From assembly GCA_965223705.1 (NCBI GenBank), contig OZ245015.1:1318679-1382678 (forward strand): a stretch of 64,000 nt of DNA, in the 5' to 3' direction. How positions within the stretch are numbered: position 1 is the first letter of the stretch; every line of letters starts with the position of its first letter. Shown here piece by piece: positions 13,068 through 13,583 of the stretch. Below the pieces are notes generated by a model that saw only the letters and a list, made by a program, of their open reading frames with translations, was not told where the DNA came from and ran no database searches. The translations under genes were made by a program, and so were the position numbers. Source of the stretch: Myxococcota bacterium (GTDB taxonomy: Bacteria; Myxococcota_A; UBA9160; UBA6930).

Positions 13068-13403
13068 ATGGCACAGCGCATCCGTAAGGGAGATCTCGTC
13101 GAGGTGATCTCCGGAGCCGACCGAGGCAAGCAGGGCCGCGTCACCGAGGTGCGGGGCGCCGACCGGAAGGTTCGCGTCGAGGGCGTGCGCGTCCAGAAGC
13201 GGCACTTGAAACCCGGACGCGGAGGCGCTCGCGCCGGCGGCATCGTCGACCGCGAAGGGTTCGTCGACGCGTCGACCGTCATGCTCGTCGATCCCAGCGA
13301 CAACAAGCCGAGTCGCACACGTGTCGAAGAGCGCGACGGGCGGCGGGTGCGCGTTTTCGTCCGCAGCGGTGGGACGGTTCCCGAGCCCACCGTCGCCCCG
13401 TAA
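13068..13403 (+). CDS. rplX: 50S ribosomal protein L24 (uL24), outside the spc operon
   Basis: IRKGDLVEVISGADRGKQGRV KOW motif, VEGV...KRH, GGI..REG, VMLVDP. Confidence 0.9.
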   Translation: MAQRIRKGDLVEVISGADRGKQGRVTEVRGADRKVRVEGVRVQKRHLKPGRGGARAGGIVDREGFVDASTVMLVDPSDNKPSRTRVEERDGRRVRVFVRSGGTVPEPTVAP

Positions 13404-13412
13404 GGAGTCTCC

Positions 13413-13583
13413 ATGGCGAAAAAAGGCAAGCGCGAAAAGATCAAGCTCGAGTCGACAGCCGGTACGGGCCATTTCTATACGACGACCAAGAACAAAACGA
13501 ACACGCCCGACAAACTGGAATTCAAGAAGTACGACCCGGTCGCGCGCAAACACGTCGTCTACAAAGAAACGAAACTGAAGTAA
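13413..13583 (+). CDS. rpmG: 50S ribosomal protein L33, Cys-free type (absent from ORF track, 56 aa)
   Basis: Hand translation [56 protein letters not shown]; TAAGGAG RBS. Confidence 0.95.

Follow-up and report, generated by a model that had tools for sequence, protein, structure and literature searches.

The 64,000-nt stretch of Myxococcota DNA analyzed here, called the window throughout (contig OZ245015.1; GTDB lineage Myxococcota_A, UBA9160, UBA6930), carries a pair of ribosomal protein genes, rplX and rpmG, outside the main ribosomal operons. The product of rplX matches the curated profile TIGR01079 (rplX_bact) at 89.5 bits, above a cut-off of 53.7, over profile positions 2 to 103 of 104. 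In Pfam, it matches KOW (PF00467, 26.6 bits) as well as PF17136. A full-length profile match above the curated cut-off, together with a KOW motif at the N terminus, identifies the protein as uL24, and it aligns with residues 2 to 101 of a solved bacterial uL24 chain (4wce_R). An initial annotation, made from the DNA letters without database searches, had described a complete, Arg-rich uL24 at this locus, and so it is: the profile is matched along its whole length, and 19 of the 111 residues are Arg. The product of rpmG is just as clearly bL33, matching TIGR01023 (rpmG_bact) at 91.8 bits (cut-off, 23.95) over positions 1 to 56 of 56. The description of this protein as 56 aa long and without cysteines is correct, the Cys count being 0. 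The features of the locus, and those dispersed ribosomal protein genes elsewhere in the genome that are discussed below, are collected in Table 1.

Table 1. The rplX-rpmG locus and other dispersed ribosomal protein genes of the same genome. Positions are those of the window unless preceded by a locus label (L106, L176) or by G000:C1, a contig of the genome itself.
Feature	Position	Strand	Length	Basis or remark
Divergent gene, glucose/sorbosone-dehydrogenase-like	12096-12992	-		Upstream of rplX; named from orthologues in relatives
Promoter-like motif, TTGACg-N16-GCAC-N3-TA-N-GCGCTC	13016-13053	+		Ends 14 nt before the rplX ATG; conserved across the order
Putative Shine-Dalgarno sequence of rplX, GGGAGA	13056-13061	+
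rplX (uL24)	13068-13403	+	111 aa	TIGR01079, PF17136 and KOW; sole uL24 gene of the genome
Putative Shine-Dalgarno sequence of rpmG, AAGGAG	13402-13407	+		Overlaps the rplX TAA stop (13401-13403); read from sequence
rpmG (bL33)	13413-13583	+	56 aa	TIGR01023; sole bL33 gene of the genome; Cys-free, E. coli-like type
GC hairpin, CGCGGG-GGTGTG-CCCGCG	13597-13614	+		After rpmG; without U-tract
TetR-family regulator	13639-14289	+		PF00440 and TetR_C_13; downstream of rpmG in this genome only
rpsN-rpmE-rpmB	L106 947-1801 (G000:C1:4302231-4303081)	-	rpsN 101 aa (long type), rpmE 82 aa (Cys-free)	Far from spc; all three single-copy (tblastn)
rplC (L3), stand-alone	L176 1414-2055	-	213 aa	Neighbors judged from translations alone
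rpsD (S4), stand-alone	G000:C1:59228-59824	+

How closely are the two genes tied to one another? Only 9 nt separate them in the window, the spacing originally noted. The AAGGAG sequence that lies over the rplX stop codon suggests that rplX and rpmG are co-transcribed and that their translation may be coupled. The GC hairpin after rpmG was considered as a terminator and is unconvincing: the fold of 13584-13638 has an energy of -24.3 kcal/mol, with a z score of -0.53 relative to shuffled sequences. A terminator scan of 12800-13800 likewise found no intrinsic terminator.

The genes on either side had been called a dehydrogenase and a TetR, and both names hold, the former through orthologues that match PF07995 and the latter through PF00440 and TetR_C_13. 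The dehydrogenase-like gene is a steady companion, a homologue being found divergently upstream of rplX in most loci of the window's order (hereafter, the focal order) by tblastn. The orthologue in locus L010 matches PF07995 (GSDH) at 4.6e-14, and the window's own copy gave no Pfam match. This copy is 298 aa long, versus about 400 aa in relatives, and it adjoins, with a 4-nt overlap, an open reading frame of 291 aa on the same strand (11224-12099, minus). It may be a shortened or remodeled copy. The TetR gene, on the other hand, is not downstream of rpmG in relatives and lies outside the conserved unit. In most families of the order, the gene directly after rpmG encodes a 117-aa ferredoxin with two Cys clusters (loci L008, L016, L019, L020, L023, L026, L028 to L031, and L117 to L126 are among the examples). 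The window's own genome has its ferredoxin orthologue at C1:4254629-4254838, away from rpmG, and the TetR gene holds its place.

Is this the only L24 gene the cell has? The genome is 4.56 Mb in 2 contigs and 95% complete, with the window on the 4.54-Mb contig. Family HMM searches of the whole genome returned a single rplX and a single rpmG, the window's own, and tblastn with the two proteins, at E values of up to 10, gave nothing credible as a further copy of either in the genome. The spc operon lies on the same contig (G000:C1, about 1.456 Mb), with rplN 124 kb downstream of rplX-rpmG. The early remark that neither rplN nor rplE lies near rplX is therefore correct, both being that far away. 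The genes of the spc region run rpsC-rplP-rpmC-rpsQ-rplN-rplE-rpsH-rplF. No rplX lies between rplN and rplE, and the stop codon of rplN overlaps the start codon of rplE as TGATG. Because the spc operon cleanly lacks rplX and the genome holds a single match, the rplX of the window is the cell's only L24 gene.

The arrangement extends well beyond this genome. In all 62 loci fetched from the focal order, rplX is followed by rpmG on the same strand, with a spacer of about 2 to 130 nt. These loci cover 10 of the 12 families and include two single-contig genomes, though a few represent the same genome reached twice. The families outside this set are f2, represented by one genome that is 68% complete and gave no rplX match, and f10. 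The other half of the pattern is equally regular, with rplN abutting rplE in 30 of 30 spc loci from the order. The canonical order rplN-rplX-rplE, by contrast, is found in all 12 loci from the sister order, which belongs to the same class, in 44 of 44 loci of a phylum-level Myxococcota sample (L132 to L175, with L153 and L154 belonging to the sister order and already included in the 12), and in about 48 loci from other phyla. The sister order also has a Cys-free rpmG as its sole copy, and there the gene is solitary and stands in unrelated contexts.

Given order-wide rplX-rpmG on the one hand and canonical gene order in the other Myxococcota, the sister order included, on the other, the most parsimonious account is that rplX relocated once, at the base of the order, to a site just upstream of rpmG. 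Relocation was one of two possibilities raised at the start, and it is borne out by the sole copy in the window, the spc operon without rplX, and synteny in relatives, where the arrangement is common to the whole order as sampled. We consider it very probable that rplX-rpmG is the primary, sole-copy uL24/bL33 operon of these bacteria and that rplX left spc in the common ancestor of the order. To our knowledge, rplX is almost never found outside rplN-rplX-rplE, and a search of the literature found no description of rplX outside spc in Myxococcota. The rplX-rpmG pair is thus a rare but ordinary variant of gene order whose position defines a lineage. An order of abundant, uncultured Myxococcota in which the move is fixed gains a clean gene-order marker, and it offers a natural test of whether the expression of L24 needs the context of the spc operon.

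In all three genomes with both loci on one contig (this one, G014, and G031), rplX-rpmG lies about 120 to 250 kb from the spc cluster. This nearness can be read either as a local move or as a conserved neighborhood.

Other genes have left the cluster as well. In the window's genome, rpsN is also absent from spc, and the sole S14 gene, of the long type, is found in an rpsN-rpmE-rpmB cluster (Table 1). A short S14 gene still lies between rplE and rpsH in four families, at loci L185 (f4), L187 (f7), L203 (f5), and L206 (f10), so the loss of rpsN from spc came later than the move of rplX. The spc operon has therefore been eroded stepwise, with rplX leaving first. Dispersed cluster genes number four in total in this genome. 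The neighbors of the stand-alone rplC look, from their translations alone, like an isocitrate/isopropylmalate-dehydrogenase gene and a methyltransferase gene.

Single-gene exits of this kind have been described before. Brandis (2021; PMC8046335) catalogued 163 events in Gammaproteobacteria and Bacilli, including single-gene "deletions" from the ribosomal cluster in which the gene survives elsewhere. The genes concerned are rpsN, rpmJ, secY, and rplJL, and rplX does not appear in the main text. The explanation given was that duplicates, whether pre-existing or new, were followed by loss of the cluster copy. With rplN-rplE-rpsH contiguous and a copy of rplX elsewhere, the present genome falls into the same "deletion" class. 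The resemblance is 2-fold. (i) One essential gene has gone from an intact, concatenated operon, and a functional copy is found elsewhere on the chromosome. (ii) A route by duplication and then loss of the cluster copy is proposed for both. What differs is that the gene here is rplX, that it has joined a new and conserved operon with rpmG, and that the change is fixed in an order of Myxococcota. The move of rplX belongs, then, to a known class of single-gene exits, but with a gene that rarely moves.

How might the move have come about? The single copy, the clean gap in spc, the conservation across the order, and the canonical order elsewhere in the phylum, the sister order included, are direct observations, and the steps that would connect them can be sketched as follows. 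In the ancestor of the order, rplX would have left its place between rplN and rplE and landed directly upstream of an rpmG that was already solitary. Presumably, rplX was first duplicated or transposed to where it now lies, and the copy in spc was lost afterward. The spc operon would then have closed over the gap, so that the stop of rplN came to touch or overlap the start of rplE. The ancestral unit would have been a bicistronic rplX-rpmG followed by the ferredoxin gene and facing the divergent sorbosone-dehydrogenase-like gene. Transcription would probably start from a conserved motif with a TTGAC, some 50 nt ahead of rplX, and give a short leader, and rpmG would be co-transcribed, using its own Shine-Dalgarno sequence over the rplX stop.

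That motif recurs across the order. Its consensus was drawn from 38 distinct upstream regions anchored on TTGAC, and it begins about 50 nt upstream of rplX. The motif may well be the promoter region of the rplX-rpmG operon, possibly with a GC-rich discriminator. It does not fit the spacing of sigma-70 promoters, and no canonical sigma-70 promoter was found in 12800-13800. In 19 members, only about 30 nt lie between the GCAC and the ATG, too few for a structured autoregulatory leader. An Rfam scan of 12000-14500, at E values of up to 1, detected neither a ribosomal leader nor any other family.

Could the motif mark a wider regulon? In the 4.5-Mb genome, the full motif occurs only at rplX. A looser version, TTGAC-N17-GCA[CT], has 32 matches in the genome, versus about 30 expected by chance from base composition, and we rejected it as a regulon mark. 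It was absent from the upstream regions of rpsD and rplC that were inspected, and the motif is also absent upstream of rpmG in the sister order. A more ambitious speculation is that the linkage of rplX to rpmG is a selected or laterally spread unit rather than a one-off accident. We regard this as unlikely. In its favor, the pair has retained an uncommon upstream motif that departs from the canonical form (TTGAC-N17-GCAC-N3-TA-N-GCGCTC) throughout the order. If pairings of rplX with rpmG in different phyla had a shared ancestry or a repeated origin, a dedicated control circuit for the assembly initiator L24 outside spc would be indicated.

What about the control that rplX left behind? Being outside spc, rplX has no share in any control exerted at the level of that operon. 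The S8 operator of E. coli, at the start of rplE, lies downstream of rplX, which is under retroregulation (Fu et al. 2013; PMC3616713). Going by the title of that study, most regulatory RNAs of this kind are narrowly distributed to Gammaproteobacteria, so that S8 feedback at the rplE start may be absent in the present lineage. The E. coli spc operon (rplN-rplX-rplE-rpsN-rpsH and onward) has the same gene order as the focal one apart from the missing genes, and in both rplN and rplE are tightly coupled. The difference is that the focal operon lacks rplX and, in this genome, rpsN as well.

The relocated gene need not have been native. A foreign rplX, or a whole rplX-rpmG cassette, could have arrived by horizontal transfer and integrated beside rpmG, after which the native spc copy was lost. 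A tree of 125 L24 sequences (109 columns), whose backbone is unresolved, bears on this idea from both sides. The focal sequences form one clade (SH-aLRT, 96), which the free tree does not recover as the sister of the sister order. Its place, away from that order, is by two canonical-context L24 sequences on long branches (L057 and L060), as transfer might predict. Some Actinomycetota L24 sequences are also as similar to the focal ones (48 to 54% identity) as those of the sister order are (39 to 48%). Yet a tree constrained to unite the focal order with its sister, although 24.8 log-likelihood units worse, is not rejected by the AU test (P = 0.248). The focal clade nests in no donor group, and its stem is no longer than other order-level stems. 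The identities are unremarkable too: for L24, the median across pairs of Myxococcota orders is about 40%, a value that also holds for the focal-sister pair, and comparisons with outside phyla give about 41 to 43%. The L33 proteins of the focal order, compared by reading the sequences, are 80 to 87% identical to those of the sister order, which speaks against a foreign cassette. There is no positive evidence for horizontal acquisition of the focal L24, and we judge displacement by a foreign gene to be very unlikely. As for L057 and L060, one is labeled as Gammaproteobacteria (with a 1.47-Mb chromosome) and the other as Myxococcales, and their attachment beside the focal clade is probably long-branch attraction.

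The second possibility raised by the initial annotation was that the pair is an alternative-ribosome module, in which a second L24 and a Cys-free L33 paralogue would replace the standard proteins under zinc limitation or stress. The attraction of this idea is plain: the L33 has no cysteines, the pair lies outside the main operons, and Cys-free L33 paralogues appear in solved structures from other bacteria (one chain is entitled "50S ribosomal protein L33 C-"). However, the Cys-free bL33 type of 55 to 56 aa is the only L33 in E. coli. The absence of cysteines is uninformative here because of this, and the lack of Zn-ribbon cysteines, though real, does not discriminate between the two kinds of L33. 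The best matches of the rpmG product among solved structures are Cys-free bL33 chains of 55 to 56 aa, found in hundreds of ribosome entries, so the focal L33 is closest to the sole type in E. coli-like ribosomes. In the sister order, too, the only L33 copy lacks cysteines. On these grounds, a Cys-free L33 does not point to a zinc-sparing paralogue here.

C-minus alternative ribosomal proteins are defined by the presence of a C+ paralogue in the same genome. In the "two C or not two C" scheme of Makarova et al., the Zur-regulated sets of C-minus paralogues reportedly comprise L31, L33, L36, S14, and S18. The focal locus resembles these sets in that a Cys-free L33 is encoded outside the main ribosomal operons. 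It differs in that L24 does not belong to them, rpmG is a constitutive sole copy, and the genome has no C+ partner: the family search and tblastn found no CxxC paralogue of L33 in it. S14, L31, and L28 are also single-copy, tblastn having found no second copy of any of them in the genome. The conserved motif upstream of rplX is not palindromic. The proposed check, a search for a second rplX and a CxxC-type rpmG, was run and found neither, which, with an arrangement common to the lineage, is the outcome that had been named beforehand as telling against an alternative ribosome. With one rplX and one rpmG in this genome, single copies the rule across the order, an arrangement that is order-wide, and a spc operon that has no rplX, a module of this kind is extremely improbable. 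We are confident, rather, that zinc-dependent switching plays no part in the rplX-rpmG unit and that uL24 and bL33 alike serve the ordinary ribosome. A false lead is thereby removed, in that neither an alternative ribosome nor a role for zinc need be sought at this locus.

Finally, an assembly or binning artefact, in which the piece carrying rplX-rpmG came from an organism other than the one with the spc operon, comes to mind since this genome and its relatives appear to be metagenome-assembled, but the chance of it is negligible: rplX-rpmG is on the same 4.54-Mb contig as the rplX-less spc operon, at a distance of 124 kb, rplN and a paired rplX-rpmG share a contig in two single-contig relatives (G014 and G031) as well, and the same pattern recurs in dozens of independent assemblies.

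Elsewhere in the window lies an open reading frame of 667 aa (16829-18832, minus strand), the first half of which contains a thioredoxin-like CPHC motif and the second half eight CxxCH heme-binding motifs. By these motifs, it looks like a fusion of a TlpA-like protein with a multiheme cytochrome.
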